DNA of 55,799 nucleotides, taken from contig CALWMX010000054.1 in the NCBI GenBank assembly GCA_944382105.1, positions 1 through 55,799 on the forward strand. Direction: 5' to 3'. The DNA comes from an uncultured Butyrivibrio sp. Its GTDB lineage: Bacteria > Bacillota > Clostridia > Lachnospirales > Lachnospiraceae. The translations under genes and the position numbers were made by a program. The notes under the pieces were generated by a model. That model made no database searches and had not been told where the DNA came from. It saw only the letters and a program-made list of their open reading frames with translations. This document shows positions 8,998 to 55,503 of the stretch, one piece after another; position 1 is the stretch's first letter; each line of letters opens with the position of its first letter.

Positions 8998-9597
8998 TCA
9001 CGTTATATGATATTTTTTCACTGTTCTTTCTATTTTTTTCCCTATCGGTCCGGCCAGCATAAGTAAAAATATAACATTTGATATTGCGTATATCAGCGTG
9101 TACGGTACGGCTGAAGCCACGGCAATGGCATAATACGACCATGACCATCCGTCCACCGTCCATATGACCGTATATATATCCATAAGGAACGAAAAAACAA
9201 TCCCTGCGCCGATTCCGTACACGGCCAGCATAAGCCTTCTGCTCCGGAGCGTCTCCTGCATCAGCCCGGCAGCCGCACCGATAATCCCCCAGACAAGCAT
9301 CTGAAAAGGTGTCCACGGTCCCTGACCGAAATAAAAATTGGAGATAAGCCCGGTCAATGCCCCGCAGTAAAAGCCTGCGTCCGCGCCAAGATACATTCCG
9401 CATATTACTATGATTGCCGTCACCGGTTTAAAACCCGGAAATGGCGCAAAGACAAAACGTCCCGCCACGCTCATTGCAGTCATCACCGCTATGAGCATAA
9501 TTTTGCGTACGTCCGTTTTCTTTTTTTCCATTATTACAAGCAGAATTGCACAGGCCGCAATAACCGACCATACAATTGCCAGAGCCATTGTTTTCAT
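8998..9597 (-). CDS. cbrT: ECF transporter S component, CbrT-like (cobalamin)
   Basis: PGFKPVTAII, LISNFYFGQGPWTPFQM; multiple TM helices; last gene of the cobalamin-riboswitch operon. Confidence 0.75.
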   Translation of the reverse strand: MKTMALAIVWSVIAACAILLVIMEKKKTDVRKIMLIAVMTAMSVAGRFVFAPFPGFKPVTAIIVICGMYLGADAGFYCGALTGLISNFYFGQGPWTPFQMLVWGIIGAAAGLMQETLRSRRLMLAVYGIGAGIVFSFLMDIYTVIWTVDGWSWSYYAIAVASAVPYTLIYAISNVIFLLMLAGPIGKKIERTVKKYHIT

Positions 9598-9654
9598 AGC
9601 TTAAGCCTTCTCTCATTTAAGCGTATCTTCTTTAAACATATCTTTGGGTGTATG

Positions 9655-11061
9655 TCAGTCAGAATTCATCTTGCTTAATCTTGCGCCAGCAGTGGTATAA
9701 AATATATTGCTTTCACAAAACTCCCGTGCCGGTCTGTCGCAGACTATTTTACCTCCGAACATAAGCAGCATCCTGTCCGAAAACATTGCCGCAAATTCCA
9801 CATCATGCGTAATCAGAAGAATTGCTTTTCCTTCATCCCGTAGCTTTTCAAGCCGTTTTCCCAGCTTCTCTTTTTCATTATAATCAAGGCCCTTGGTTGG
9901 TTCGTCAAGAATAAGCAGCGAAGGATTTTTTGAAAGAATTATATCAAGGGCCGCAAGCTGCCTTTCGCCGCCGCTTAAGTCATACGGATGCATTCCGTTG
10001 TATTTTCCGTCCACAGTGTCCCCGGTAAAATGAAGCGTCACATCCTGAAAAAGCATTGCCGAATTTTCGCCTGCTTTTTTTATTTTTCTGCCGTTAATCT
10101 TTACGCTTCCGGAATAAGGCTTAAGCGCTCCGGCCGACAGCAAAGCAAGGGTGGATTTACCGCAGCCGTTTTCTCCCAGAAGCGCGGTTATGCTGCCGCC
10201 GTCCACCGAAAGATTCAGATTGTCAATTAATGCCCCTTTACTCCTGTCATAAGCAAACGAAACGTTCTTAAGCCTCAGAACCGGATGAGATGACAACGGC
10301 GCCTCTTTACCGACGTAAACAGCATGCGCTTTCCCGAAAACGGCCTCCGCCAGCGAAAGCGGCGGAGGAGACATTTCCACGGATCTGGCTATTTCCGGCA
10401 GAAATCCGCGAAGCTCCTGACTGCGGCTCATATATTCCGCCATACTCCTTTTGTCCTTGCACACGACGGTTTCATCCTCAATAAGAAGAATTTTATCCGC
10501 ATATGCAAAAATTCTGTCAGAGCGGTGTTCTGCAATGATTACCGTGATTCCCAGCTCTCTGTTTATATTTTTTACAAGGTCGATAACCCTGTCCGCCATT
10601 ATGGGATCCAGCATGGAAGTGGGTTCGTCCATCAAAAGAACCTTGGGGTTAGCGGCCATTGCTGAAGCAATGTTGAGTATCTGTTTTTCACCTCCTGAAA
10701 GCGTGTGAGTATCACGGTTAATCTGACGGCTTATGCCAAAATATCCTGCCGTTTCCGCAACCCGCTGCCTTATGAGCTCAAGCCTGTGCCGCTCATTACC
10801 CTGTGTAGCGTTTGTCGCCCCGAATTCCAGCTCCGAATACACCCTATCGCACACAATCTGGTTATCGGGATTCTGCATTACAAAACCGGCTTTCGTGTCC
10901 AGTTCCTTTTGAATCAGCCTCAGAAGCGTTGATTTCCCGGAGCCGGTTTTTCCGCAGAGCAGTACAAGCTCTCCCTGATTAATGTCAACGGCTGCGCCGG
11001 AAAAAATCCTGCGTCCCGGAGCATACTCAAAATCTATATTTTCAAGGTGTATATTTTCCAT
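9655..11061 (-). CDS. ECF transporter fused double ATPase
   Basis: Two Walker A (GKTGSGKST, GENGCGKST), LSGGE signatures, DEPT Walker B. Confidence 0.92.
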   Translation of the reverse strand: MENIHLENIDFEYAPGRRIFSGAAVDINQGELVLLCGKTGSGKSTLLRLIQKELDTKAGFVMQNPDNQIVCDRVYSELEFGATNATQGNERHRLELIRQRVAETAGYFGISRQINRDTHTLSGGEKQILNIASAMAANPKVLLMDEPTSMLDPIMADRVIDLVKNINRELGITVIIAEHRSDRIFAYADKILLIEDETVVCKDKRSMAEYMSRSQELRGFLPEIARSVEMSPPPLSLAEAVFGKAHAVYVGKEAPLSSHPVLRLKNVSFAYDRSKGALIDNLNLSVDGGSITALLGENGCGKSTLALLSAGALKPYSGSVKINGRKIKKAGENSAMLFQDVTLHFTGDTVDGKYNGMHPYDLSGGERQLAALDIILSKNPSLLILDEPTKGLDYNEKEKLGKRLEKLRDEGKAILLITHDVEFAAMFSDRMLLMFGGKIVCDRPAREFCESNIFYTTAGARLSKMNSD

Positions 11062-11831
11062 TTCACGTTCTCCTTAATCCTGTATATTTCAGGCAGAAAA
11101 CATAATACCGCCATCAATATTCCATGCCACGTCTCCGGCAGAAAATACATTGTCTGAAGCGCCGCCGTCAAGGCAAGCACCGCTGCATCACCCGGCCTGA
11201 ATTGAATTCCTGAAATTCTTTTGCCTCCTGAGGTATAGCCGCGCATAATCATTGAATCCGCCGTGTCCATGGAATTTTCAAGAGCCCATGTGAATACTGC
11301 CGAGGTAATCTGCATTATGTGCTTTTTTTCCGGGACCTGCCCCCGCTCCTCATTTATGCGCGCTGCAAGCCCGGTTTTGTTGTATCTTTCCAGGTATCTG
11401 GGTATGAGCCTCATAATCATCGAAATCAAAAGCGCCAGCTTTGGAAGGTGCCAAAGCAGCGCCATTATTTTTTCACCGGTAAGCGTTCTTGAAAATGCCG
11501 AAAACCACACAATCGCCGCTGCAAGCATAAGTCCGTTTACGGCGCCGTACCTGATTGCTTCAAGCGTTACCGCCCTGTCGTTTATAAAAAAAAGCTCCGT
11601 ATCTCCCTGATGTGACAAAAGGCCGTTGACCAATGCCATTACCGCCGTCAGGACCGCCGAAAAAAGAATCCTTTTTACCGGTATTTTCCTTTCGTATATT
11701 CCGGCACGTACAAGTCCGGCAGCAAGAGCCGTCAGTATAATAAAAGGGTTCATAAATACCATTATGGGAATAATGACTGTCATGTAATATATCAGCAATG
11801 TTGCAGGATTAAAATTTTCAAAACGTCTCAT
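11034..11831 (-). CDS. ecfT: ECF transporter transmembrane T component
   Basis: TM helices, MRLIPRY, ALENSMDTADSMIMRGY motif. Confidence 0.9.
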   Translation of the reverse strand: MRRFENFNPATLLIYYMTVIIPIMVFMNPFIILTALAAGLVRAGIYERKIPVKRILFSAVLTAVMALVNGLLSHQGDTELFFINDRAVTLEAIRYGAVNGLMLAAAIVWFSAFSRTLTGEKIMALLWHLPKLALLISMIMRLIPRYLERYNKTGLAARINEERGQVPEKKHIMQITSAVFTWALENSMDTADSMIMRGYTSGGKRISGIQFRPGDAAVLALTAALQTMYFLPETWHGILMAVLCFLPEIYRIKENVKWKIYTLKI

Positions 11832-13423
11832 GGCTTTTCCTCCGTCAGGTCCGTACCGTCAGAGTATATCCACCTCACTTCATCATCAGGTTCCAATTCA
11901 TACTGTGAGCAGGATACCTCCGGCATTTTACCGTTGACATAATATGTCCATCCCGACAGGCTTCCGTAATCAAACTCAGCAAGACCGTCAATGCTTCTTA
12001 CGTATATGGTACCGAGAGCCGCGCTTCCGCTGTAATCAATGTTTATCCGTCTGTCTCCTGCCAGCCTGAGAAGCTGGTCAAAGGCCGTATCGCCGGTTTC
12101 AATGTACACCTGTGTCCGCGGCGCTATTATACCGTTTATACCCGTAACCGTTATATATGTCTCAGTGCTTCCCTGTTCATTACGGACATTGTAATGCTCG
12201 CTGACTGTCTCAAAGCTGGAAAATCCGACTATGGTCATAAGCGCCGCGCACACCGCCCCCGTAACGATTGCCTTTATAAGAGTCAGCCGTTTTCTGAACG
12301 CCATGACAAGTATTATGACTGCGGCGGCAGACAAAATAATACCCATAAAAATATGCTTTATATGCCTGCCGCTTATACCGTTTCCCGTATGCGGCAAGGT
12401 TTCCTCATCAGGTATTTCCGTGCCTGTTTCATTTTCTTCTGCCTGTCCGTTTGGGGCAGAGTCACCGTCATCAATATCTTCCAACGTATCTCCGGACGTA
12501 AAATCATACAGAAATCTGCCGGTATTTTCATATTTTTCCGCACACACAAGCGCTCCCAGCGCCTGCACCGTAGCCATGGAATCTGCCGGGCCTCCCTGCG
12601 TGTGTGAAAAGCCGCCTTCCTCCGTAATATATGTAATCAACGCATCGTAGACGCTTTCACCGTTTTTTATAAATCTTGTATCGTTTCTGAAATCTATATC
12701 CAGAGCGCAAAGCGCCATCAGAACCTGCGCCGTGCTTTCACTGTTATCCACCCCATAGCTGGCGTAACCGCCGTTATTCTCTTGCAGCTCCGACAGCCTT
12801 GCCACTGCTTTTTCTATATTTTCACCGTATCCTTTATCATAAAGCGGTGCAAGGGCCTGAAGCGCCATTGCCGTCACATCGGCATCCGAATACTGCCCTG
12901 TCAGATTCCAGCCTCCGTCCTCAAGCTGCAGCGACGTGAGGCTGTCGGCAATTTCCGTCAAAACGGCATCATCAACATAATTATTGCTGCACGCAAGCAT
13001 CAGTCCGTATATTATGCTCATAATACCGCTTTGACCGGTATGATTTCTGACAGTATCAACTATATATTCTTTATCCTGCCCTAGACATGCTTTCACAAGC
13101 CCAATACGCTCATAATCGGTTGCACTAAGCTCTTTCGCCGAAATAAGATATTCATCCAGCGCATCATTGTATTGTCCGTAATCCGCTTCAATCCCTGACT
13201 CCTTCATATATATCACAAGCCAGTCTCCGCCGCGTCCGGCAGACGGCACAAGGCCGGTACTCAGATACTCTTCGTAATCCGAGACGCCAGCCTGTGTCAT
13301 TTGATATTTCCAGATTCTCTCCTGTATGTTTTTATTCTCATCCCCGGCAGAGACTTGCAGCGCTGCCGTAACCGCAAAGATTACGGCAAACGCCAATGCT
13401 TTAATCTTGTTTTTACCTCTCAT
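11828..13423 (-). CDS. Secreted alpha/alpha-barrel (prenyltransferase-like repeats) + 2 TM + DUF4430 (transcobalamin C-terminal-like) protein
   Basis: QLEDGGW, DVTAMALQAL, NSESTAQVLMAL repeats; YVRSIDGL..SGWTYYVNG..DEVRWIY. Confidence 0.8.
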   Translation of the reverse strand: MRGKNKIKALAFAVIFAVTAALQVSAGDENKNIQERIWKYQMTQAGVSDYEEYLSTGLVPSAGRGGDWLVIYMKESGIEADYGQYNDALDEYLISAKELSATDYERIGLVKACLGQDKEYIVDTVRNHTGQSGIMSIIYGLMLACSNNYVDDAVLTEIADSLTSLQLEDGGWNLTGQYSDADVTAMALQALAPLYDKGYGENIEKAVARLSELQENNGGYASYGVDNSESTAQVLMALCALDIDFRNDTRFIKNGESVYDALITYITEEGGFSHTQGGPADSMATVQALGALVCAEKYENTGRFLYDFTSGDTLEDIDDGDSAPNGQAEENETGTEIPDEETLPHTGNGISGRHIKHIFMGIILSAAAVIILVMAFRKRLTLIKAIVTGAVCAALMTIVGFSSFETVSEHYNVRNEQGSTETYITVTGINGIIAPRTQVYIETGDTAFDQLLRLAGDRRINIDYSGSAALGTIYVRSIDGLAEFDYGSLSGWTYYVNGKMPEVSCSQYELEPDDEVRWIYSDGTDLTEEKP

Positions 13424-14231
13424 ACGCTTCCTTTTTGGATATTATTGCGCCTGCAAAAATAACCGCCATTGCAGCCATAACCCCGGCATAAACCGCCGGG
13501 TCTGCAAAATCCGCCGTTTCTATATCCGTGTCAACGGCAACGGTATAATCAGGTGCGAATCTTAATACCGTGGGAACACCTGTATCGTCGTATCTCTCGA
13601 TAGTCACCTTATGCTCACCGTTTGTGAGCAATTCTTTGTCAATTGTGATTCTGCCCTCGGCATCTGTGGTGTATTCCGTAAAGCCGGCATCATCCGAATA
13701 CCATTTTACAACAGCATTTTCAACCGGGTTTACCACAACCGACGGGTTATAATTCTCATCATATACGGTGTCTTTGCTGGTAAAAGTAATCACTCCGTTT
13801 TCGATATCTGATAAGTCAGCCTCCGGAAACTGAAAGCCTGCGCCGTACGGGTCGCCATAATAAAGAACAACCTCGTCACCGTCTTTAAGCATGACGTTGT
13901 CCATCCCTGTTCCCGGATCTGCCCCGTTGACAATAAAAAGCCATCCCGAATACGCGCCGTAGGATGCCGCCTTGTCGCCGTTTACTTCAGTGAGGTATCT
14001 GCCGTATCCGCCATCCTCCATGACAATATTTATATTGTCATTGTCCGAACCTAACTGCTCCAGGAAATCTCCAAGATTTGTGTCCGTCGTAGTTACGGTG
14101 TCATAATAAAAGTTCTCGTCAACACCCTCAATCCTGAGCGTTACGTTGATTTCGTCCTCCGCCGCGGCAAATACGGACAGGCTTCCTATTGAAAGCAGTA
14201 CCGCCATGACAAACGTTGCAAATTTTTTCAT
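13413..14231 (-). CDS. DUF4430 (transcobalamin C-terminal-like) surface protein with C-terminal anchor
   Basis: Signal peptide; YLTEVNG..SGWLFIVNG..LKDGDEVVLYY; Ig-like segment; ETAD + TM + KK tail. Confidence 0.8.
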   Translation of the reverse strand: MKKFATFVMAVLLSIGSLSVFAAAEDEINVTLRIEGVDENFYYDTVTTTDTNLGDFLEQLGSDNDNINIVMEDGGYGRYLTEVNGDKAASYGAYSGWLFIVNGADPGTGMDNVMLKDGDEVVLYYGDPYGAGFQFPEADLSDIENGVITFTSKDTVYDENYNPSVVVNPVENAVVKWYSDDAGFTEYTTDAEGRITIDKELLTNGEHKVTIERYDDTGVPTVLRFAPDYTVAVDTDIETADFADPAVYAGVMAAMAVIFAGAIISKKEAYER

Positions 14232-14540: not shown

Positions 14541-15704
14541 TCAAAACAAGCCCGCAGCTCCTATAATCTCGGCAATGTGTGCAAGCTCATCACACGGCTT
14601 TACAAGTGCAAATCTTATATATCCCTCGCCCATTGGTCCGAAGGCCGTCCCCGGAGTACCGATAACTCCCGCCTTGTCCATCAGCGCCTCGCAAAAGCTC
14701 TGTGAGGTGTAGCCCTTTGGCACGGGAAGCCAGACAAACATCGTTCCCTGTGAATCTGGTACATCCCAGCCAATCTTCCTCAGCGCACCGAGAAATGTAT
14801 CCCTGCGTTTCTGATATTCCATGCACTGTCTGCCGACGCACTCTCTTGGTCCCGTAAGCGCAGCAATCGCCGCTTTCTGTACCGGATACGACATTCCGAA
14901 ATCATACTGGCTTCTCAGAAGCTTAAGGCTGTCGATAATCGACTTGTTGCCTGCGCAGAACGAAATCCTCAGGCCGGTAACATTAAATGATTTTGACAAT
15001 GAAAAAAATTCGACTCCAACGTCTTTGGCTCCGTCAAGCGCCAGAAATGAAAACCCTTCTCTTCCGTCAAAAATTATATCCGAGTAAGCATTGTCATTTA
15101 TAATGAAAAAGCCGTATTTCCGCGCAAGACGGATTAAGTTCTCATACATCGACTTGGGAGCCGCCGCCCCAACGGGATTGGACGGATATGATAAAACAAT
15201 ATACCTGGTCTTATACAGGATGTCTTCCGGAATGTCCTCTATAACCGGAAGAAAGTCATTTTGTCTGAGAAGCGGATAATATCTTATATCAGCTTCCCCA
15301 AAATAGGAGCCTGCCTCAAAAACAGGATAGCCCGGGTCCGGAAGCAGAACAATATCGCCGGGATTGCACATGGCCATTCCAAGGTGTCCCATTCCTTCCT
15401 GAGTTCCGTGTACGCCCGTTATTTCGTCCGTACTGACATCCGCATTATACCTGTCTTTGTAATAATGCGAAACGGCCTGAAGCAGCTCCGGCATATCGGC
15501 AAGAGAATATTTATAATTCTCCGCATCCGAAACAGCCTTGCCCAAGGCTTCCATTATGTGCTCCGGAGGTTTGAAATCCGGCGTACCCACCGAAAGATTA
15601 TAGATGGTCCTTCCCTCTTTAATCAGTTTGTTTTTCTTTTCATCAAGAGCGGCAAATATTCCTGTTGTAAAATGTTCAAGCCTTTTGGCACATTTATATT
15701 CCAT
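14541..15704 (-). CDS. PLP-dependent class I/II aminotransferase (LL-DAP aminotransferase/MtnE-like)
   Basis: YPSNPVG, NDNAYSD, SLSKSFNVTGLRI, GEGYIRFAL. Confidence 0.88.
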   Translation of the reverse strand: MEYKCAKRLEHFTTGIFAALDEKKNKLIKEGRTIYNLSVGTPDFKPPEHIMEALGKAVSDAENYKYSLADMPELLQAVSHYYKDRYNADVSTDEITGVHGTQEGMGHLGMAMCNPGDIVLLPDPGYPVFEAGSYFGEADIRYYPLLRQNDFLPVIEDIPEDILYKTRYIVLSYPSNPVGAAAPKSMYENLIRLARKYGFFIINDNAYSDIIFDGREGFSFLALDGAKDVGVEFFSLSKSFNVTGLRISFCAGNKSIIDSLKLLRSQYDFGMSYPVQKAAIAALTGPRECVGRQCMEYQKRRDTFLGALRKIGWDVPDSQGTMFVWLPVPKGYTSQSFCEALMDKAGVIGTPGTAFGPMGEGYIRFALVKPCDELAHIAEIIGAAGLF

Positions 15705-15811: not shown

Positions 15812-16765
15812 CTAAATATCCATCCCCGAATTTTCCACATCTTTCTTCCAATTATCATAAGCCGGCTCTTCCCTGTGGTCAGGAAGACTGAATTTTTCCG
15901 ACAAATATTCCCCAAGATACGATGACACTTTCTTGGCGCCGGCAAAATTCAGATGATTTCCGCCGTCCTTTGTTTCCTTTGTCCAGTCAATATCAATCTC
16001 ATCCTGCATGAGATTCATATCAAGAAATTCAAGACCGTATTCCTCTGCAATTTTCTCAACGGCATTATGCTTGGCATACGACCAGTTATCCGGTGAGGGC
16101 ACGCTTACAAGTATAAGCGCAGCTCCTTTTTCCTCAGTGTACTTCTTTATTTTCTTAAGATACTCCTCCGTATTTTCTCCCATACGGGCCACTTTTTCGG
16201 TCTCATGCATCCATTGGCCGCCGGTATACGGTTCGCATGCGGTCCTGTATCTGAAACCTTTGAAGCGGCTGTCGTTTTCATCTTTATTGGTATAGACCTT
16301 AAGCGGTATGTATGTTTTCCACCTGTCATGATATTTCAGTACCGGAATCACTTTTGAAAATGCATTCATAACAGCGTCCGAATCATCCTCATGCGTACCT
16401 GAAAAACGAAACAGACAGTTTGTTTCCAGAACCACAACCTTAGGCGACTGCTTGGAAAAAAATTCTTCCATCAGCGCATATGTATCGCAAAGCCTCTGGA
16501 GCGAGGTTCCGCACACATATGACGTGTATCCCTGCTCTTTAAACATCTGAAGAGGATTGAAGGCGGAATAGCTTTCGCTGTCACCGAAAAAAACCAAATC
16601 AATGGACTGTTCGGCTTCCTTTTTCAAATCCTTTGTTTTGTTGTCAACGCCAACCGCATTATAAACGGCGTTTCGCGGCTTCATAATAACCGAGGTTACG
16701 GCAAGTATTACAGCCAGCCCTGCAAGAAAAGCCGCAGAGCGGATAATTTTTTTTATTATATCCAT
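15812..16765 (-). CDS. SGNH-fold membrane-anchored acyltransferase (DltD/AlgJ-like)
   Basis: N-terminal TM; FFGDSE nucleophile motif; KDGGNHLN catalytic Asp/His; GGAGG RBS before MDIIKK. Confidence 0.8.
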   Translation of the reverse strand: MDIIKKIIRSAAFLAGLAVILAVTSVIMKPRNAVYNAVGVDNKTKDLKKEAEQSIDLVFFGDSESYSAFNPLQMFKEQGYTSYVCGTSLQRLCDTYALMEEFFSKQSPKVVVLETNCLFRFSGTHEDDSDAVMNAFSKVIPVLKYHDRWKTYIPLKVYTNKDENDSRFKGFRYRTACEPYTGGQWMHETEKVARMGENTEEYLKKIKKYTEEKGAALILVSVPSPDNWSYAKHNAVEKIAEEYGLEFLDMNLMQDEIDIDWTKETKDGGNHLNFAGAKKVSSYLGEYLSEKFSLPDHREEPAYDNWKKDVENSGMDI

Positions 16766-16776
16766 GTTTACCCTCC

Positions 16777-18327
16777 CTAATATCCTGCATAAATCAAATC
16801 CACTGCCGTGTAGCCGCTTCCGTATGCCCCGAAAATAACCACAAGCATAATGGCGGCATACCAGAATATCCATCTGGCCGGGACAACCCAGCCTGATACC
16901 TTCTGCCGGATATCGATATTTTTCTCTTTAAGCGCCCCGACAACGGTAACGATAATTATCCCTGCTCCGGCAACAATAAGGTCCAGTCTGTCCATTTTCA
17001 GCCGGTGTATATTTGAAAAAAGCGCGCTGATATGGAAATTGCCGAATATTCCTGCCAGCATTGCAAATCCGTCTTTAAGGGAATTTGCCCTGAAAAACAG
17101 TTCTCCGACCAGCACTATTATAAAAAGCTTGGCCGTCCTGAATATTTTATATCCGATGCTTTCCCTGTTGATATGCAGTTTCTCGGCAAGCTTTTTAACA
17201 GGCTCTTCGGTAATATTCTCTATAAAAATCAACACGAAATAATACATTCCGTAGAAAATAAAGGTCCAGTTAGCGCCGTGCCACAGGCCGTTGCACGCCC
17301 ATACGCAGAACAGTGCCGCCGTTGGCGCAACAAATTTGCTGACATTCCTGCCGAATCTTTTTTTAACTTTCTTGGCGGCATTCTTGACAGGCCCTGCAAG
17401 CGATACGGGGTAGAATATGTAATCCTTAAAAAATGTACCCAGCGTTATATGCCATCTTCGCCAGAACTCGCCTGCGGATTTTGCGAGAAACGGCTGCCTG
17501 AAATTCTCCGGAAGCTTTACGCCGAATATCTGGCCACTGCCTATTACAATATCCATACAGCCGGAAAATTCAAGATACAGCTGGGCCACGTAGCAGACCA
17601 CTCCGAAAAGGATTATCGAGCCGTCCTTATCCGCATAATCGTTGAAAATATAATTTACGGTAGGATATATCCTGTCGGCAATGACAATTTTCTTAAAAAG
17701 CCCCCACAATATTCTCTGGTATCCGAACTTAAGGTTGTCGAATTTGACGGATTCGCCCGCATACAGCGTGTCTGCCGTCTCATGAAACCTTGCAATCGGC
17801 CCCTCCATTATCTGAGGGAAGAAGCTTAAATAAAGCGCTACTTTTGCAATATTATGCTCTGCCTTCAGGGTTCCCCTGTATACATCGGTAATATACGATA
17901 TAATCTCCAGCGTGTAGAAGGACAATCCTATGGGCACCATAAATTTTACGCCGCCAAATGTCCAGTCCACGTTAAACAAATGAAGCAAATCCGACAAAGA
18001 CTGTCCGAAGAAATTCGTATACTTGAGCACCACAAGCACAAGAAGGTTAGCCGCTATTCCAAACGCAAGAATGCGCCTTTTCTTTTTGGTGACGTTTTTT
18101 TTGTCCCCATCGTTTTTCAGTGCGGTTCTCTCAATCCATATTCCTATAAAATAAGTGAGAAGCGTGGCGCATATCAAGTATACAATCAGCTTGCCGGAAA
18201 ACAGCCAGAAAAAAACATAATCCGCTGCAATTATAACGGCAAACCTGAATTTCTTAGGTACAATCTGATACAGAAGAATAACAACCGGCAGAAAGACAGC
18301 AAAATACGCTATCGTATGATATGCCAT
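16777..18327 (-). CDS. MBOAT family O-acyltransferase (DltB/AlgI-like)
   Basis: PIGLSFYT, FFPQIMEGPI, ENFRQPF..EFWRRWHITL, NGLWHGA; C-terminal LIYAGY. Confidence 0.95.
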   Translation of the reverse strand: MAYHTIAYFAVFLPVVILLYQIVPKKFRFAVIIAADYVFFWLFSGKLIVYLICATLLTYFIGIWIERTALKNDGDKKNVTKKKRRILAFGIAANLLVLVVLKYTNFFGQSLSDLLHLFNVDWTFGGVKFMVPIGLSFYTLEIISYITDVYRGTLKAEHNIAKVALYLSFFPQIMEGPIARFHETADTLYAGESVKFDNLKFGYQRILWGLFKKIVIADRIYPTVNYIFNDYADKDGSIILFGVVCYVAQLYLEFSGCMDIVIGSGQIFGVKLPENFRQPFLAKSAGEFWRRWHITLGTFFKDYIFYPVSLAGPVKNAAKKVKKRFGRNVSKFVAPTAALFCVWACNGLWHGANWTFIFYGMYYFVLIFIENITEEPVKKLAEKLHINRESIGYKIFRTAKLFIIVLVGELFFRANSLKDGFAMLAGIFGNFHISALFSNIHRLKMDRLDLIVAGAGIIIVTVVGALKEKNIDIRQKVSGWVVPARWIFWYAAIMLVVIFGAYGSGYTAVDLIYAGY

Positions 18328-18330
18328 ATT

Positions 18331-18561
18331 CTATTCTTCTCCTTTTAGTCTGCAAATCATCTTCCAAAGACTGTCTGCCGAATTGAAATTTTCCGCAACA
18401 AGCTCTGCCGGTGAAATTTCAACATCAAACGCATCCTCAATCTCGGATACAAGCGACAGTATTCCGAAGGAATCCAGAATATGGTCGTCAATCAGGGTCT
18501 TGCATGACGCATAATCTACTCCCGGCTGAATATCCTCCAAAATTTCCAATAACTCTTCCAT
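18331..18561 (-). CDS. Acyl/aminoacyl carrier protein (DltC-like)
   Basis: 76 aa, acidic; ILDSFGILSLV phosphopantetheine Ser motif. Confidence 0.92.
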   Translation of the reverse strand: MEELLEILEDIQPGVDYASCKTLIDDHILDSFGILSLVSEIEDAFDVEISPAELVAENFNSADSLWKMICRLKGEE

Positions 18562-18563
18562 CT

Positions 18564-19739
18564 TTATCCCTCCATCTGTGAATTTATAATATCGGTTCCC
18601 ATAGGCTTTCTGACCACTGTATAACCGCTATTATCCGAATAAAATACAATCTGCACCAGCTCTCTGCTCAAAAAGAGCGCCATGCATTCCGTTACCGAGT
18701 AAGCGCCGCAGTTCTCAAATATAAACCAGTCTCCGCGGTTTATCCCGGTAAAAGCAATGCCTCTTAAAATTACGTCGTTGACAGTGCACAGCGAACCGCA
18801 TATATTCCACGGCATCTCACTGCCCGAATTATCCGTAACCAGTTTCATAAAAGGTTTTTTCATTCCCATACTCTGACCGTAATAATTAAGCTGGTGAATA
18901 CCTCCGTCGATTATGGCATAATTTACGCCGTCGGTATGTTTTACATCCACCACCGATGTTATATAATAACCGCAGCCGGAAGCAATAAATCTGCCCATTT
19001 CTATGGTGATTTGCTTATAACCCGATACGGCGTCAAGCAGTTTTCTCAGTTCATCCAGCTCCCAGACCTGATCTGCCGGCTTGTCGCTTTCAAAATACGT
19101 CACGGAAAGCCCCGGTCCGTATTCAAGTTCATTAAGACAGACCCCGTATGTTTCCTCAATATAATGTGAAAATTCATCCAGCATTTTCAGTTCTTTTTCT
19201 ATTTTGGACAGCTTTTTCTGTGTCCCGGAATAATAATGAAGTCCTTGCAGCTTCAAATGACTGTCATTAATTACCTTCTGCATAATATTTTCAAATTCCG
19301 CTTTGTCCACACCGAACTGATTACCGCTGGAAAGCCTTATTATAACCATGATATCCGTATTGCATTCTGAACATACTTTGGACAGTATATCATAATGCTC
19401 CATGGATTCGATGGTAAAAATACCCTTTCCCCCACTGAGCCTGATAATGCGTTCCATTGAGTCATATGTTTTGTTTACGCCGGACACGACTATTTTTTCA
19501 GGCGGTATATCCATCCTGCGGCATATTTCATATTCTCCCGGCGAACAAACCTCGTACTTGTGAATATATTCGTTCATAGGCTTTATAAGAAACGGATTGG
19601 CCTTCATTGCATAGCAGCACCTGGCGTCCCCGAGTCTGCTCTTTATAAGCTCCACACGTTCCCTGAGCATATCAAGGTCGAAGACATAGAGCGGTGAGCC
19701 AAATAGTTCTTTTGCCTGTTTCAGCTTATTAAGCTCCAC
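18564..19739 (-). CDS. Fold-type III PLP decarboxylase (LysA/BtrK-like)
   Basis: YAMKANP PLP Lys, HYYSGTQ, IEMGRF, GSLCTVND, GAYS. Confidence 0.88.
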   Translation of the reverse strand: MELNKLKQAKELFGSPLYVFDLDMLRERVELIKSRLGDARCCYAMKANPFLIKPMNEYIHKYEVCSPGEYEICRRMDIPPEKIVVSGVNKTYDSMERIIRLSGGKGIFTIESMEHYDILSKVCSECNTDIMVIIRLSSGNQFGVDKAEFENIMQKVINDSHLKLQGLHYYSGTQKKLSKIEKELKMLDEFSHYIEETYGVCLNELEYGPGLSVTYFESDKPADQVWELDELRKLLDAVSGYKQITIEMGRFIASGCGYYITSVVDVKHTDGVNYAIIDGGIHQLNYYGQSMGMKKPFMKLVTDNSGSEMPWNICGSLCTVNDVILRGIAFTGINRGDWFIFENCGAYSVTECMALFLSRELVQIVFYSDNSGYTVVRKPMGTDIINSQMEG

Positions 19740-21252
19740 GTTTTTTTCCCCCTTTATACTGTTCTTTCAGATATGCCCTGTCAAGCTTGCCGTTTTTGGT
19801 GAGCGGCATCTCCTTCACCTGCATGAAAACGTTCGGTATCATAAATTCAGGTACCTTTGTTTTCATAATTTTTATTATATCTGTGCGCTCGGCGCCGCCC
19901 TCATAGAAGGTTACAATTTTATTTTTTACATCATCAAAAAATGTGCAGGCTCTCTCAACGCCGTCTATACCGTTTATTGCGGCGTCTATCTCCTCAAGTT
20001 CTATTCTGTGGCCCATATGCTTGATTTGAAAATCCTTGCGTCCCGCAAAATACATAAGCCCGTCATCCCCGTATGAGGCAAGGTCACCGGTTCTGTATAT
20101 AATCTCAGAAAAATTCCTGTTGAGAGGATTCTGTACAAAAGCTTTGGCCGTCATTTCAGGATTATTATAATATCCCAGCGCAAGCGCCGTACCTGTCACG
20201 CACACCTCTCCGGTCACTCCGGCTTTTGTCACAAGCTTATCGTTCTCATCCAGCAGGAAAACCCGCTCGTTAGGAAAAGCTTTTCCCATAGGAAGTCTGT
20301 CATCATCTTCATATTCTCTGTCCAATATGTGATAAGTACAGTTGCATGTAATCTCCGTGGGGCCGTACAGGTTTACGAACAAAGCGTCCGGGTAACATGC
20401 ACGCCATGCGTTGAGCTGCTTAATCGGCATCATCTCTCCGCTGAACATTATCTTGTTAATCCGGGAGGGAACTTTATATTTAAGTCCGTGCAGCCTGTTG
20501 AGCAGACAGAGTGCAGATACAGCCCAGATAAGCGTTGTCACGCCGTTGTCCTCAAGCATATCGACAACATTATTTGGAAACATAAAATATGACTTCGGTA
20601 TTATTACAAGCGTTGCTCCGGTACTCAGACATGAATATATATCCTTTACCGACACATCGAAATCAAACGGCGCCTGATTACCGATAACATCCTTGTCATT
20701 AATCCCGAATATGCCGGTAAAATTATCTATAAAATCAATAACCGAACGATGGCAGATTACGACGCCCTTCGGTACTCCCGTGGAACCGGATGTAAAGATA
20801 CCGTAAAGCGGGTCCGTGTCAAGAGTCTGTTTTCTTACGGCGTCAAGCGCTTTATCATCTATTTCACTGTGAATCCCGCGTATATCCGCTGCCGCGCCGC
20901 TGTATCCGGCCTTCCTCAGCTTATCCATATATTCCGGCTCGGTCAGAACCATGGCCGGAGCCAGAACATCCAGTATCTGCTCTATTCTCTGCTGCGGAAA
21001 AGACGGGTCCAATAAAACATAAAAGCAGCCGGCATAAACAATTCCCATAAATACCTTAAGGATTTCAACGCTTTTTTCCGCGAAGACAACCACTGGCCTG
21101 CGCACCTGAACATATTCCGTCAGATAAGAGCCTACCTGTCGGGCTCTTAAATAAAGTTCGCCGTAGGTACATTGTGCATGTTCATCTCTGACTGCTGTTT
21201 TATCAGGAAATCGCTCATATGAGCGTTCCAGATATTCCAATACGTTATTCAT
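19729..21252 (-). CDS. Stand-alone amino acid adenylation domain protein (DltA-like)
   Basis: FTSGSTGVPKG, NQAPFDFDVS, YGPTE, YRTGDL, PLTKNGKLDR; GGAGG RBS before MNNVLE. Confidence 0.93.
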   Translation of the reverse strand: MNNVLEYLERSYERFPDKTAVRDEHAQCTYGELYLRARQVGSYLTEYVQVRRPVVVFAEKSVEILKVFMGIVYAGCFYVLLDPSFPQQRIEQILDVLAPAMVLTEPEYMDKLRKAGYSGAAADIRGIHSEIDDKALDAVRKQTLDTDPLYGIFTSGSTGVPKGVVICHRSVIDFIDNFTGIFGINDKDVIGNQAPFDFDVSVKDIYSCLSTGATLVIIPKSYFMFPNNVVDMLEDNGVTTLIWAVSALCLLNRLHGLKYKVPSRINKIMFSGEMMPIKQLNAWRACYPDALFVNLYGPTEITCNCTYHILDREYEDDDRLPMGKAFPNERVFLLDENDKLVTKAGVTGEVCVTGTALALGYYNNPEMTAKAFVQNPLNRNFSEIIYRTGDLASYGDDGLMYFAGRKDFQIKHMGHRIELEEIDAAINGIDGVERACTFFDDVKNKIVTFYEGGAERTDIIKIMKTKVPEFMIPNVFMQVKEMPLTKNGKLDRAYLKEQYKGGKKRGA

Positions 21253-21453
21253 TTTTCCCTCCCATATTTGCGCTTTTCCAACTGTACTATTGGGCATAGT
21301 ACAGTTTTCAAATTTAATATACCACCGACAGCATACAGTGTCAATATAATTCTTATAAAACACATAAAAAACACAAAATAATACAAAAAACAGGCCGGCG
21401 CATTATCGATATCAAATCGTAGTGCGTCAGCCTGCAAATCAGCATACATTCCG

Positions 21454-23985
21454 TCAGGTTGTAAACATCTGTATTGCGTTTTCAAGTTCTTTTGCCTTAG
21501 CCGTCAGTTCCTCAGCCCTTACGCTTAATGCCTCAACAGCAGAAACCTCCGCCTGAACGGTATCCTTAACCGTCGTAGTTGAAGCGCTTGTTTCCTCCGT
21601 AACCGCAGCAATATTCTTGATTGTGTCAAGCACGCGGTCCTTATTCTCCGTAATCGCATGCATACTGTCAAGTATCACGTTAATTTCTCTAAGCAGTTCA
21701 TCAAACTGTGAACCCACCTTACCAAACATGTCAACCGTTCCGTTAAGCGCCTTTGACTGGCTCTTGAGCATTTCTCCCGCATCTCCTGCCGATGCTGCGG
21801 TTTTTCTTGTCTGGTTCTGGATATTTTTGATTATCTCTTCGATATCCTTAACAGCTAAAACCGACTGGTCCGCCAGTTTTCTTATCTCGTCTGCCACTAC
21901 CGCAAAGCCCTTGCCCGCTGTTCCTGCTCTCGCCGCCTCAATTGAAGCATTGAGAGAAAGAAGATTCGTCTGTTTTGCTATACCGTTTATGGTTTCAATA
22001 ACGCTTCCTATGTCCGCCGATTTATGTTCAAGCTCTTCAATGTCCGTGATGATGGTTTCCGTAAGCTCTGCCGTAGACAGTGACTGGAGTTTCAAATCGC
22101 CTACTATGGTGCTTCCCTCTTCTACCAGCTCCTTGGTAGTCTTTGCAACGCTTCCGATAACCTCTGCTTTCTTTGATACTTCATTTATACTTTCGGCGAA
22201 ATCTTCCATCTGATGATATCCGTTTTCTGTATCCTGAACCTGGGATACTACGCCTGCATCCATATCAGCCATGGCAGTTGATACATTTCGTATGGAATCA
22301 CTGATATATGAAGCGGCATCGGAAAGCTCCTCAGCGGCATCGGATACGGCATGTCCGAAGCCCGCCACATCCGTAACAAGGCCTCTTATCCTTCCAATCA
22401 TCTCATTGGTATCATCGGCCATAACTCCGAATTCATCCTGCCTTTTAAGCTTAAGCTCCGCCGTAAGATCTCCCTTGGCAACCTTTCTGAAAGACCTGGA
22501 AAATTCTCCCGTTGCCTTTGCGATTCCTCCTGCCGTATAAAGACCGATAAGCAGCGCAACTATCGTTCCCACAATAACAAATGCAAATGTAAGAACTTTT
22601 ATCGCGGTTACCGATGTAAGTATATCGCTCTCGGGTATTACACAGCATACCATTGTTCCGGTATCTCCCACTTTGGAGTATACAAACAACTGTTTCCTGC
22701 CGTTGAACGTAACATATTCGCTTCCGTTTTCCTCGCTGCCGTTCATGGCGTCATTCCAGAAATCTTTCCCCGTAAACACTGCCTCGTCAAAGGTCCTGTC
22801 CTCATCTCCCGTAACGATTGTTTCCCTTCCGTCTGCCGTAACAAATGCAGCCAGCGTATTATCGCTTACAACTGAGGATTCAAGAGTGTTTTTAACCTCC
22901 GAGGACTTCATGTCGACTATCGCATAGCCCACCCCGTCGGTAAATTTTCTGATATATGTGGCGGAATAATAATCCGTATTCAAATCCATTGTGCTGTCTA
23001 TGTAGTCATGCTTTCCGAACCACCCTCTCGTCTCGGACGGGTTATCGGTCCAGTACGCTCCTTCTTCCGACTGCATAAATTCTTCGTATGTCAGGGTTCC
23101 TCCGCTTGTATTCAGTACAGTTGTGACAGGCCTGCCAAGCTCACCGATAAGGGTAGCAGATTCAATTCCCACGGCACTCTGGGTAAGAGTACCCATAATA
23201 GTGGAAATATTCCTGTAATAGGTTGAGTTTTCATTGTCTGAATTAGTGTCAAACATCATGTAATAGTATTTAACATTATCCTCCACAACCATCTGGTTGG
23301 CTCTGTTCACAATGTCCGACATAATCAGGTTTATGTAATTTGCACTGCTGTCAATCGTACTGACCGCGGTCGTCTCATAATTGCTTACTATAGTGGATTT
23401 CGCTGTGTTATACGATATCACACCCAGAAGGACTATAAAAAGCACAGGCACAAGGAACGATATCACAAGCCTGAACTTAATCTGCTTTGTCAAAGGCCTG
23501 CTCTTGTCCCTTCCTGACAAAATCATTTCTATAAAAGCCTTTATTCTGGAAGTCTTTACCTCCGTTGAAGCCGTTTCAATCTCCGACACTGCATATTCCG
23601 CAGTCTGATTGTCCTCCGCACTATTTGCCGCATCCGGAACAGCACTTATGTTTCCGGCTTTTTTTGTCTTGGCAGCCTTTTCTTTTTTGGCTTTGGTTTC
23701 CTTGGGAGCTTTTTCCTTTTTAGCCTTCGGCTCCTTTGGCGCTTTCTCCTTTTTAGCCTTCGGTTCCTTCGGCGCTTTCTCCTTTTTTGCCTTCGGCTCC
23801 TTTGGCGCCTTTTCCTTTCCGGCCTTTAACGCTTTGGTTTTTTTGCCTTTATCGGATTCCCGTCCATTGGCGTTTTCTTCGTTATCTGCGGTATCGGTAT
23901 TTTCCGCAGCCAAATCTATGACAACATCCTCCGGAATATTATCAGAAACATTCTGCTCCTTATTTCCCGTAATTTCCTCACTCAT
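21454..23985 (-). CDS. Methyl-accepting chemotaxis protein (TM-Cache-TM-HAMP-signalling) with long N-terminal extension
   Basis: [34 protein letters not shown]; HAMP VAKGDLT..DEFG; two TM helices. Confidence 0.95.
23674..23817 (-). repeat. 33-bp tandem repeat (~4.4 copies) encoding [11 protein letters not shown]
   Basis: Visible in DNA and protein; synonymous divergence between copies. Confidence 0.92.
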
Positions 23986-33639: not shown

Positions 33640-35337
33640 TCAAACCGGTATGCTGTCTCTTACGCACAGAGCTCCCCACCCGGTTTTTTGCGACGGTACC
33701 GGTATTCCGGCTAACGGTCTTGCGCCGCGTATCAGATAGGCCTTTACCTTTTCACCGTACAGATACCGGTCGTTTCCCATGACAATTCCCCATTGCATAA
33801 GCAGCGCTGCTGCTCCCGTCACGAAAGGCGCAGCCATGGAGGTTCCGCTCCTTGCAGTATATCCTCCTCCCGGTGCTGCCGAGCGCACATTCACTCCCGG
33901 CGCAACGATATCCGGTTTTACGGTTTCTATAACTCTGGTATATCCTCTTCCTGAAAAATCGGCATAGGCTCCGGTTCTCTGGTTGTATGCTCCCACGGTT
34001 ATTACATTGTAAGAGGTGGACGGTATGGTCAATGTCACCTCCGGTTCCGTGCCGATAAATCCTGTATCATTGCTGACAAAGCTTCCGGCTGGCAGCCACA
34101 TATGATATCTGCCGTCCCTTACTCTTACCGCTTCAACCTCAAATCTCCATATTCCTGATGATATGTAATCCAAGCCAATCATCTGGATTAATATTTCCTG
34201 ATTGGGGCTGTATGGCGCAGGCATTCCGTAATAAACATATATCTCGGTTGTTCCCGCCATATATTTTGTGATAACGTCTTCTCCCTGTAACGGTCCGTAC
34301 CTTGTTCCATCCGGCGCTATTATTGTAAACAGCAGCAGGTCAGCATAATTTTTCCATATCTGTATATCAATAAAAGGCTCATATCTTCCTATAACAAGCT
34401 CACTGACTATTTTCCCGGATACTGCCCCCTCGTCAAACTGTCTGCTTATATGGATACCCTTTGCCGCCTCATTGCCGCTTCCCGCCACTATGACGCATTT
34501 CCATGTATTGCTGACGGTATTTATATATGTTTCAAGAAGGGCGCTTCCGTCATGAGCGCCGTAATTATTTCCGAAGCTTAAGTTCACCGCAAGAGGCATG
34601 TTAAGCTCCGACGCCTTTATTATAACGTAATCCAGCGCCTCCATAAGCCTTGCGCTGCTGAAAAATCTGTCGCTTCCAAGCTTCACTACCAGAAGCTTTG
34701 CTTCATATGCAACCCCCCTGTACCTTCCCTGGGACGCCCTGCCGTTTCCAGCGGCGATTCCTGCCACATGGGTGCCGTGACCGCTTATATCCGTTACGGG
34801 GACACGGTCTGCTTCGCCGTTCAGCGCGGCGTTAATATCATCGGAATTATATACTTTTCCTGTCTGTTCATCAAACAGCTCAATGATTCTTGTGGTACCG
34901 TCGGCGTTAATAAAATCGGGATGTGTATAGTCCACCGAGCTGTCTATGACGGCCACTATCACGCCTTCGCCGTTAAGCCGGCCAAGTTCCCCGTATCCGC
35001 TTCCACCGTACTGGAAATCAAGGCAGGATGCGCTTGTGGAATACTCCAGATCGAAAAACATTTTTTTTGGTTTTTCCACAAATATAACCTGCGGCAGCGA
35101 TGCAAATTCTTCTATGTTTTCCTGAGGAAGCGTCACAAGCGCATATCCCCCTATAAGGATTTTGATATTGTTTATAAGCCCCGCAGCCGCTCTTTCAATA
35201 TCACCGCTGTAGCGGATTATCAGTTCCCAGCTTCCTTCCGCCTCGTTAAATCCCGTATTCAAATCATCGGTGCGTATACGTTCTTCCTCCGGAAGGCTGA
35301 TTGCAAGGTTTAACTGGTTCTCTATTTTCTGGTCCAT
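33640..35337 (-). CDS. Csp-family (CspA/CspB-like) subtilisin-like spore germination protease
   Basis: VAVIDS, GHGTHVAG, SGTSMAAP triad intact; jelly-roll insert; LLMQWGIV..YLYGEKVKAYLIRGA. Confidence 0.9.
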   Translation of the reverse strand: MDQKIENQLNLAISLPEEERIRTDDLNTGFNEAEGSWELIIRYSGDIERAAAGLINNIKILIGGYALVTLPQENIEEFASLPQVIFVEKPKKMFFDLEYSTSASCLDFQYGGSGYGELGRLNGEGVIVAVIDSSVDYTHPDFINADGTTRIIELFDEQTGKVYNSDDINAALNGEADRVPVTDISGHGTHVAGIAAGNGRASQGRYRGVAYEAKLLVVKLGSDRFFSSARLMEALDYVIIKASELNMPLAVNLSFGNNYGAHDGSALLETYINTVSNTWKCVIVAGSGNEAAKGIHISRQFDEGAVSGKIVSELVIGRYEPFIDIQIWKNYADLLLFTIIAPDGTRYGPLQGEDVITKYMAGTTEIYVYYGMPAPYSPNQEILIQMIGLDYISSGIWRFEVEAVRVRDGRYHMWLPAGSFVSNDTGFIGTEPEVTLTIPSTSYNVITVGAYNQRTGAYADFSGRGYTRVIETVKPDIVAPGVNVRSAAPGGGYTARSGTSMAAPFVTGAAALLMQWGIVMGNDRYLYGEKVKAYLIRGARPLAGIPVPSQKTGWGALCVRDSIPV

Positions 35338-35370
35338 ACATACCCGAATATATGTTACAGGATTAAATAA

Positions 35371-35399
35371 AATATATGGGGACTTCACCGTATTTATTA
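35371..35399 (-). promoter_or_regulatory. Putative sigma-E promoter of Csp protease
   Basis: TAATAAA-N14-CATATATT. Confidence 0.5.
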
Positions 35400-55328: not shown

Positions 55329-55503
55329 AAACAATACCTCCTGAAAAATTAAGTGTAAAGCTGCCGTTTCTTTCAGAAACGACAGCTCCCCTTGAGTTAA
55401 ATAATACCATGTTTATACGTAAATTTCAACAATAACTTTATATATTTGAAAATATTTTTTGTGCACTTACCACAAATTAAACCTGTTATTTTTCGACAAA
55501 AAA

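Follow-up and report, generated by a model that had tools for sequence, protein, structure and literature searches.

A conserved five-gene operon of an uncultured Butyrivibrio pairs a predicted carrier-bound decarboxylation module with an MBOAT and an SGNH protein

Layout of the operon

The stretch of DNA analysed here (the window, i.e., all 55,799 nucleotides of contig CALWMX010000054.1, assembly GCA_944382105.1) stems from an uncultured Butyrivibrio sp. and carries five open reading frames (ORFs), all on the minus strand at 15812..21252, that encode a stand-alone adenylation enzyme (the loader), a pyridoxal phosphate (PLP) enzyme, a carrier protein, an MBOAT (membrane-bound O-acyltransferase) and an SGNH protein. 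A preliminary description had placed five tightly coupled genes at these coordinates, which was confirmed, four being identified by family models and the SGNH protein by its fold. In gene order, the loader and PLP enzyme genes overlap by 11 nt, the following junctions are gaps of 2, 3 and 11 nt, and a Shine-Dalgarno-like purine-rich stretch precedes every one of the five starts. The features are as follows:

21316..21344, minus strand: candidate sigma-70 promoter (11/12 consensus, 17-nt spacer, extended –10), 64 nt 5′ of the loader ATG
19729..21252, minus strand: loader, a stand-alone amino-acid adenylation enzyme of 507 aa (PF00501 and TIGR01733 above cut-off)
18564..19739, minus strand: fold-III PLP decarboxylase, BtrK-like, 391 aa, GTG start (PF02784 and PF00278; K46, E247, C318-T319, E351, F356)
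18331..18561, minus strand: aminoacyl carrier protein, 76 aa (PF00550; phosphopantetheine Ser31; best solved relative DltC)
16777..18327, minus strand: MBOAT, 516 aa (PF03062; His350; two extra C-terminal hydrophobic segments)
16780..16797, minus strand: fused C-terminal acyl-shuttle hexapeptide LIYAGY with Tyr513, a variant of FXYXXF
15812..16765, minus strand: membrane-anchored SGNH protein, 317 aa (one N-terminal helix; Ser63, Asp267, His271)

The promoter call is a consensus match only, in a region that holds 30 such sites versus 14.2 in shuffles. Because the candidate promoter lies inside the longer ORF that opens at GTG 21363, the loader start at ATG 21252 was favoured; this longer ORF and one from ATG 16873 were dismissed on start signals and homologue lengths. 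No mark of foreign origin was found in GC or GC3 of the operon, and RNA runs gave short low-depth contigs only, by which expression is not evidenced.

A carrier protein beside a fused-shuttle MBOAT and an SGNH protein

The phosphopantetheine Ser31 of the carrier was kept in 83/83 homologues, and DltC was its best solved match, yet the DltC model gave 31 bits against a cut-off of 68. The carrier gene lies 3 nt upstream of that of the MBOAT, in which His350 recurs in 72/73 homologues, as does a Tyr at position –4 from the C-terminus (72/73, with a FIYAQF ending in 16). According to the available text of PMC12148441, PatA uses such a fused C-terminal motif as its acyl shuttle, and MBOAT/SGNH pathways other than Dlt have no carrier protein. 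Among the family loci described below, the carrier stood beside the MBOAT, together with a loader, in 47 of the 48 that hold an MBOAT. The two other MBOATs of the present genome end in YFRF motifs, and BLAST showed no carrier in their short loci.

The fifth protein had no sequence match in Pfam, NCBIfam or PDB. Its AlphaFold model (pLDDT 88.8) was matched by Foldseek to SGNH hydrolases (TesA at an E-value of 3e-6, PAF-AH, and sialate esterases), and its putative catalytic residues are largely conserved (Ser63 in 69/72, Asp267 in 68/72 and His271 in 71/72 homologues). The present copy has a D-x-x-x-H spacing between Asp and His, and a single N-terminal hydrophobic segment. The pair therefore carries the marks of the PatA/AlgI type, i.e., a catalytic His and Tyr hexapeptide (LIYAGY vs. 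FXYXXF) in the MBOAT, and a Ser-His-Asp set with membrane anchor in the SGNH protein. Moreover, the MBOAT scored 141 against the cut-off of 375 of the DltB model TIGR04091, the 2–11 nt gaps leave no room for dltX within the operon, and the genome held no match to DltD (PF04914). The label "dlt-like" in the preliminary description must therefore be corrected, since the fused Tyr shuttle places the MBOAT with the PatA/AlgI type and sets it apart from a DltB/DltX pair.

The PLP enzyme resembles carrier-dependent decarboxylases

The PLP enzyme has both decarboxylase domains, including the C-terminal PF00278, and K46, E247, C318 and F356 were invariant in 60 sequences, which together argue for a decarboxylase rather than a racemase. 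With roles transferred from ornithine decarboxylase, we take Glu247 to be at the PLP-pyridine position, Phe356 in the CO2 pocket and Cys318 to be catalytic. Alanine racemases have an Arg at the PLP pyridine and a Tyr as second base. Neither mark was seen in the PLP enzyme, with its invariant Glu247 and Cys318 and its C-terminal domain of decarboxylase type. Epimerisation on the carrier, offered earlier as an alternative, is therefore less likely than was allowed, given that Glu247, Cys318 and Phe356 do not vary.

Diaminopimelate decarboxylase (DAPDC) presumably holds the far amine and carboxylate of diaminopimelate (DAP) with a Glu and an Arg. The PLP enzyme and BtrK have in common a Cys-Thr loop and a C-terminal FL motif, where DAPDC has Cys-Glu, and the specificity-helix Arg of LysA is missing, a Tyr standing instead. 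Besides describing the catalytic Cys of fold-III decarboxylases, the accessible part of PMC7857480 names this Cys loop and specificity helix as the specificity determinants of the fold. With a fold-III catalytic set that has no acidic residue after the Cys, the enzyme resembles, in these residues, the BtrK/CtaF/FlvO-type carrier-dependent decarboxylases, although its identity to a BtrK-like enzyme is 26% (<30%). In a quick tree, the cassette enzymes formed their own clade (SH-aLRT 100, stem 2.39), apart from LysA-like and ATP-grasp-linked enzymes. This tree omits 15 redundant or partial loci and contains no VinN, FlvN or BtrK, an ATP-grasp/carrier-linked enzyme (L063) serving as stand-in, and its long branches make deep placement unsure.

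A predicted complex of the decarboxylase dimer with the carrier scored 0.51 vs. 0.00 for the best control, which lends weak support, with a contact agreement between runs of at least 86% and a partner pLDDT of at least 83. The mark was reached by 116/157 solved and 2/215 mismatched pairs, of which only 18 solved pairs and both mismatches scored 0.60 or under; this calibration is approximate for the present job, which used its own alignments, unlike the calibration.

That the PLP enzyme differs from the housekeeping LysA is supported by its missing DAP residues, its own clade, its BtrK-like Cys loop and the presence of a separate LysA-like gene. Action on a free metabolite, either as a second LysA or as a source of free beta-alanine or GABA for the loader, is very improbable. 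Its best NCBIfam match is indeed lysA (TIGR01048), at 167 bits and below the cut-off of 297.9, the operon is followed after 107 nt by an LL-DAP-aminotransferase-like gene, as it is at some other loci of the genus, and no PanD was found in the 95.7% complete genome. However, the separate LysA-like gene reaches 274 bits on the same model, just below cut-off, the DAP-binding Glu and Arg are missing, and the aminotransferase link is seen within the genus only. Moreover, a basic pocket residue in the loader (see below) would be of no use for free beta-alanine, and, in the published excerpts on these systems, free substrates are not accepted by CtaF, and a bolN deletion is not rescued by beta-alanine.

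Some relatives of the PLP enzyme occur in other settings. At L094:7488-10640, a decarboxylase shares one frame of 1051 aa with Rib and transglutaminase-like domains, which could reflect a real fusion or read-through; P0150 is a 1046-aa relative. At L125:7494-12582 (G555:C5), a divergent decarboxylase is accompanied by radical SAM genes, an adenylation enzyme of another kind and a BtrH-like protein, i.e., a separate thiotemplated cluster.

The loader has a basic residue in its substrate pocket

The pocket code of the loader reads D-V-K-I-M-S-L-C-N-K (GrsA positions 235...517), and position 239 was Lys or Arg in 86/86 loader homologues (500 bits or more). Against the DltA model TIGR01734, the loader scored 303.8 vs. 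a cut-off of 559.85 bits, and it has Lys at 239 and Ser at 301 where DltA has Met and its D-Ala-selecting Cys. The loader is thus not a DltA. Neither of the outcomes that the preliminary description had named as counting against it, i.e., D-Ala activation together with decarboxylation of free meso-DAP, or a linkage that is not conserved, found support.

Microcystin iso-Glu and iso-Asp modules carry an Arg at position 239. The basic residue at 239 would fit an acidic amino acid as substrate, and a small pocket with a basic floor favours Asp over Glu; we put Asp at a little short of even odds, and consider Glu or another acidic residue unlikely. The loader also has D235, a bulkier residue at 236 (V) and S301, equivalent to D230, F231 and S299 in VinN, the pocket features of which for beta-amino-acid loading are given in the available part of PMC11253843. 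At 6/10 positions its code equals the Ser code DVWHMSLVDK (as listed in the excerpt of PMC12283262), in keeping with a small pocket. In the loader model, residues 195–200, the amine-binding stretch, had a pLDDT <50, and a fold search with this model named no specific substrate. A subfamily at L052, L059, L117, L122 and L123 has loaders with Asp235 changed to Ile and an Arg239, and decarboxylases that cluster together in the tree.

Conservation and distribution

Within the genus, the decarboxylase subfamily was found at E<1e-50 in 18/22 genomes, and 15/16 loci with good coverage hold all five genes; 1/16 is without the carrier and two further loci end at contig edges. In a sample of 300 genomes of the host family, one per genus, the subfamily was present in 60, yielding 61 loci with a loader in 59, a carrier in 58, both in 57, an MBOAT in 48 and all four partners in 46. 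For the 51 loci with 5 kb on each side, the corresponding figures were 50, 49 (loader and carrier) and 40 (all four). The preliminary description had called for a neighbourhood survey, and with all four partners in 46/61 family loci, and loader plus carrier in 57/61, this linkage is not due to chance. Beyond the family, 6 of 400 genomes in a phylum sample, from three other families, have a decarboxylase of at least 40% identity, each with the five genes, and at least 150 clusters (50% identity) scored above 340 bits. Database names assign one homologue to Eshraghiella crossota. A plasmid search revealed no close copy, with 229 distant decarboxylase matches (all <60%, those listed <29%) and one loader match of 38%.

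For loci without an MBOAT, MBOAT genes were present elsewhere in 10/10 genomes checked (in 6 of them at E<1e-100 or near 1e-88 or better), a presence that does not imply partnership. Of the 300 family genomes, 15 had DltA-like genes (8 over cut-off), making the cassette about four times as common as dlt in this sample. Four of these 15 also carry the cassette, which indicates that the two systems coexist. The cassette as a replacement for dlt was considered and found unsupported, a DltA-like gene being present in 4/60 cassette genomes vs. 11/240 others.

A response regulator lies within 3.5 kb 3′ of the cassette in 12/47 loci, with a kinase detected in 8, and the best model matches of one such pair were of VanR/VanS type, below cut-off. 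This hints at envelope-stress control.

Single loci depart from the common layout, i.e., the MBOAT is split in two pieces at L010:11434-12981, and no carrier gene lies between decarboxylase and MBOAT at L041:7115-7143.

The loader-decarboxylase-carrier triad is portable

At loci without an MBOAT, loader, decarboxylase and carrier stay together. At L107:2731-11992 this triad neighbours genes for a hexapeptide acyltransferase, a DegT aminotransferase and EpsG (a diamino-sugar cluster), at L120:4673-14536 in a nonulosonic-acid NeuB/NeuC cluster with a hexapeptide acyltransferase, and at L097 among glycosyltransferases. In such sugar clusters the triad likely acylates a nucleotide sugar, L107 and L120 being candidates for beta-alanyl- or GABA-amidated sugars. 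Conversely, L132:5519-9661 (G283:C86) encodes a loader, a GNAT, a carrier and an MBOAT ending in FIYQQF, with the GNAT in place of the decarboxylase and, after the MBOAT, a protein of 634 aa that contains a polysaccharide deacetylase domain. Its loader code, D-A-K-L-F-A-L-V-D-K, is nearer to the Glu/Gln code DAQDLGVVDK (from the excerpt of PMC12283262). The triad in sugar clusters and the GNAT swap together suggest that the triad is a mobile unit for making acyl groups, associated with surface glycans, and that its tailoring slot is exchangeable. At L059, two MBOAT-SGNH pairs surround one triad.

Proposed pathway and alternatives

We propose, with a probability of about 0.6, that the five genes work as one line that loads an amino acid, decarboxylates it on the carrier, exports it and esterifies a surface polymer. 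Direct observation covers the parts with their catalytic residues and the way they are linked. By homology, loading would yield a thioester, and the acyl group would be relayed across the membrane from the His/Tyr of the MBOAT to the Ser of the SGNH protein and on to a polymer hydroxyl. We infer the acidic substrate, its side-chain activation, the acceptor and a role in charge-based resistance, which might extend, as the preliminary description held, to antimicrobial peptides, phage or immune recognition. The loader would take an acidic amino acid, likely Asp, by its side-chain carboxyl, an assumption made because a PLP alpha-decarboxylase needs a free alpha-carboxylate/alpha-amino acid end, and carrier-bound Asp would then be decarboxylated to a beta-alanyl group (or Glu to GABA). 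The product would be a cationic ester on a surface glycopolymer (a teichoic-acid-like polymer or wall polysaccharide), for which three sulfatase-fold genes and one PF04464 gene in the genome are possible acceptor genes. On-carrier decarboxylation, invoked in the preliminary description, does have precedent in print, the available texts of PMC11284099, PMC11350588, PMC7183216 and PMC7756342 covering loading followed by decarboxylation for vicenistatin, fluvirucin, closthioamide, butirosin and bolagladin, with VinN/L/O, CtaD/E/F and BolO/C/N among the modules.

Several observations weigh against this pathway. The shorter beta13-beta14 loop of VinN (by one residue) and its K330/R331 are absent from the loader (Cys330, Asn331), indicating that it is not a VinN-family member; it aligns gap-free to DltA and LgrA, looks like an alpha-amino-acid loader from its sequence, and has D235 replaced in 5/86 homologues. 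Of the earlier claim that an acidic amino acid is held on the carrier, the fit of the basic pocket residue therefore stands, while VinN-type side-chain-loading features are missing. By score, the PLP enzyme is equally near to BtrK and DAPDC (1e-29 each), and its Glu351, invariant and absent from BtrK and LysA, is not accounted for by the proposed mechanism and might accommodate a second amine. The five-gene form has no conserved polymer gene as neighbour, no regulator is adjacent to the copy in the present genome, and cassette and dlt are not mutually exclusive (4/15 DltA-like genomes hold both). Finally, similarity guided the choice of homologues, and related genomes do not count as independent, so that the counts are descriptive and not tests.

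Some of these points would suit alpha-carboxyl loading, after which the PLP enzyme would either epimerise the residue or remove an aspartyl side-chain carboxyl to leave an alanyl group. The full-length alpha-type loop and DltA-like scaffold of the loader, the unexplained Glu351, a weak Ala_racemase_N match and some database names ("alanine racemase") are in its favour. Nevertheless, the Glu facing the PLP pyridine, the CO2-pocket Phe and the catalytic Cys are decarboxylase marks, free racemases normally supply D-amino acids, which counts against epimerisation on the carrier, and we know of no fold-III beta-decarboxylase that would remove the side-chain carboxyl. Alpha-carboxyl loading hence appears improbable.

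A slightly better, though still low, chance is given to the same carrier chemistry with a lipid, glycolipid or lipoprotein as acceptor, or with the SGNH protein as an editing esterase. The lack of a conserved polymer-synthesis gene beside the five-gene form would agree with such a non-wall acceptor, as would the esterases and lipases among the best SGNH fold matches, and a CDP-alcohol phosphatidyltransferase or a VTT protein after the cassette in 4 and 7 loci, respectively. Against it, the characterised MBOAT/SGNH pairs in the available text of PMC12148441 acylate polymers, the decarboxylase-less relative has its polysaccharide-deacetylase-domain protein after the MBOAT, and the triad also occurs in sugar-biosynthesis clusters.

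If the five genes do esterify a surface polymer, they might represent a third trans-membrane acylation class, in which a carrier feeds a fused-shuttle MBOAT and the on-carrier tailoring enzyme is swappable. We advance this broader idea tentatively, at odds clearly below even. Its decarboxylase version would make beta-alanyl or GABA wall esters that would go unseen by D-Ala-tuned enzymes and host sensors and, in many gut Lachnospiraceae, might be the chief cationic decoration of the envelope. Such esters would outlast D-alanyl esters and carry their charge more fully. With the cassette in one of every five genera sampled from this dominant gut family, most without a DltA seen, it may explain surface-charge tuning in commensals.

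Neighbouring genes and other loci

Downstream of the operon, the window holds the LL-DAP-aminotransferase-like gene (14541-15704) and, at 8998-14231, an ECF transporter cluster that includes two DUF4430 surface proteins, of which one bears a prenyltransferase-like toroid domain; this cluster also lies 3′ of the operon in 8 same-genus loci. Further genes encode a chemoreceptor (21454-23985) with a long, repeated N-terminal extension that is acidic, then Lys/Glu/Pro-rich, a Csp-family subtilase of spore germination type (33640-35388), and a GH5 glycoside hydrolase of 1633 aa that contains Ig-like domains (50433-55334). Elsewhere, G000:C8 (L006) holds an NRPS fragment, and G000:C165:7609-8424 a 303-aa frame that belongs to PF09924 (MprF C-terminal-like), possibly another route to cationic envelope groups.

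Comparison with known systems

A search of the open literature found no description of a loader-decarboxylase-carrier-MBOAT-SGNH arrangement. The operon consists of known parts in an arrangement not found described, and is real and conserved.

With Dlt it shares a stand-alone adenylation enzyme, a DltC-like carrier, an MBOAT with catalytic His, a Tyr shuttle and a membrane-anchored SGNH protein, whereas it falls below all Dlt cut-offs, has its shuttle fused in place of DltX, an SGNH protein other than PF04914, and an additional PLP decarboxylase. The AMP-forming ligase and fold-III decarboxylase families recall the exosortase A-associated pair TIGR03098/TIGR03099, although the operon scores 199 vs. 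592 and 146 vs. 478 on these models, which are uncharacterised and imply no MBOAT/SGNH.

The on-carrier decarboxylation modules (VinN/VinL/VinO, FlvN/L/O, BolO/C/N, BtrJ/I/K and CtaD/E/F) likewise combine a ligase, a free-standing carrier and a PLP decarboxylase, with the BtrK-type Cys-Thr loop and FL motif. In contrast to the operon, they feed cytoplasmic polyketides, peptides or an aminoglycoside, and BtrJ and CtaD are ATP-grasp ligases. PatA/PatB and AlgI/AlgJ, in turn, have the same kind of MBOAT, with two extra helices ending in a Tyr hexapeptide, and an SGNH partner, but use acyl-CoA, whereas the operon brings its own carrier, loader and tailoring enzyme and would draw on a carrier-bound donor. 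Current work has Dlt as the sole pathway in which a carrier protein supplies an MBOAT/SGNH pair; by joining a natural-product starter-unit module to a PatA-type exporter, the operon would widen the range of surface acylations.

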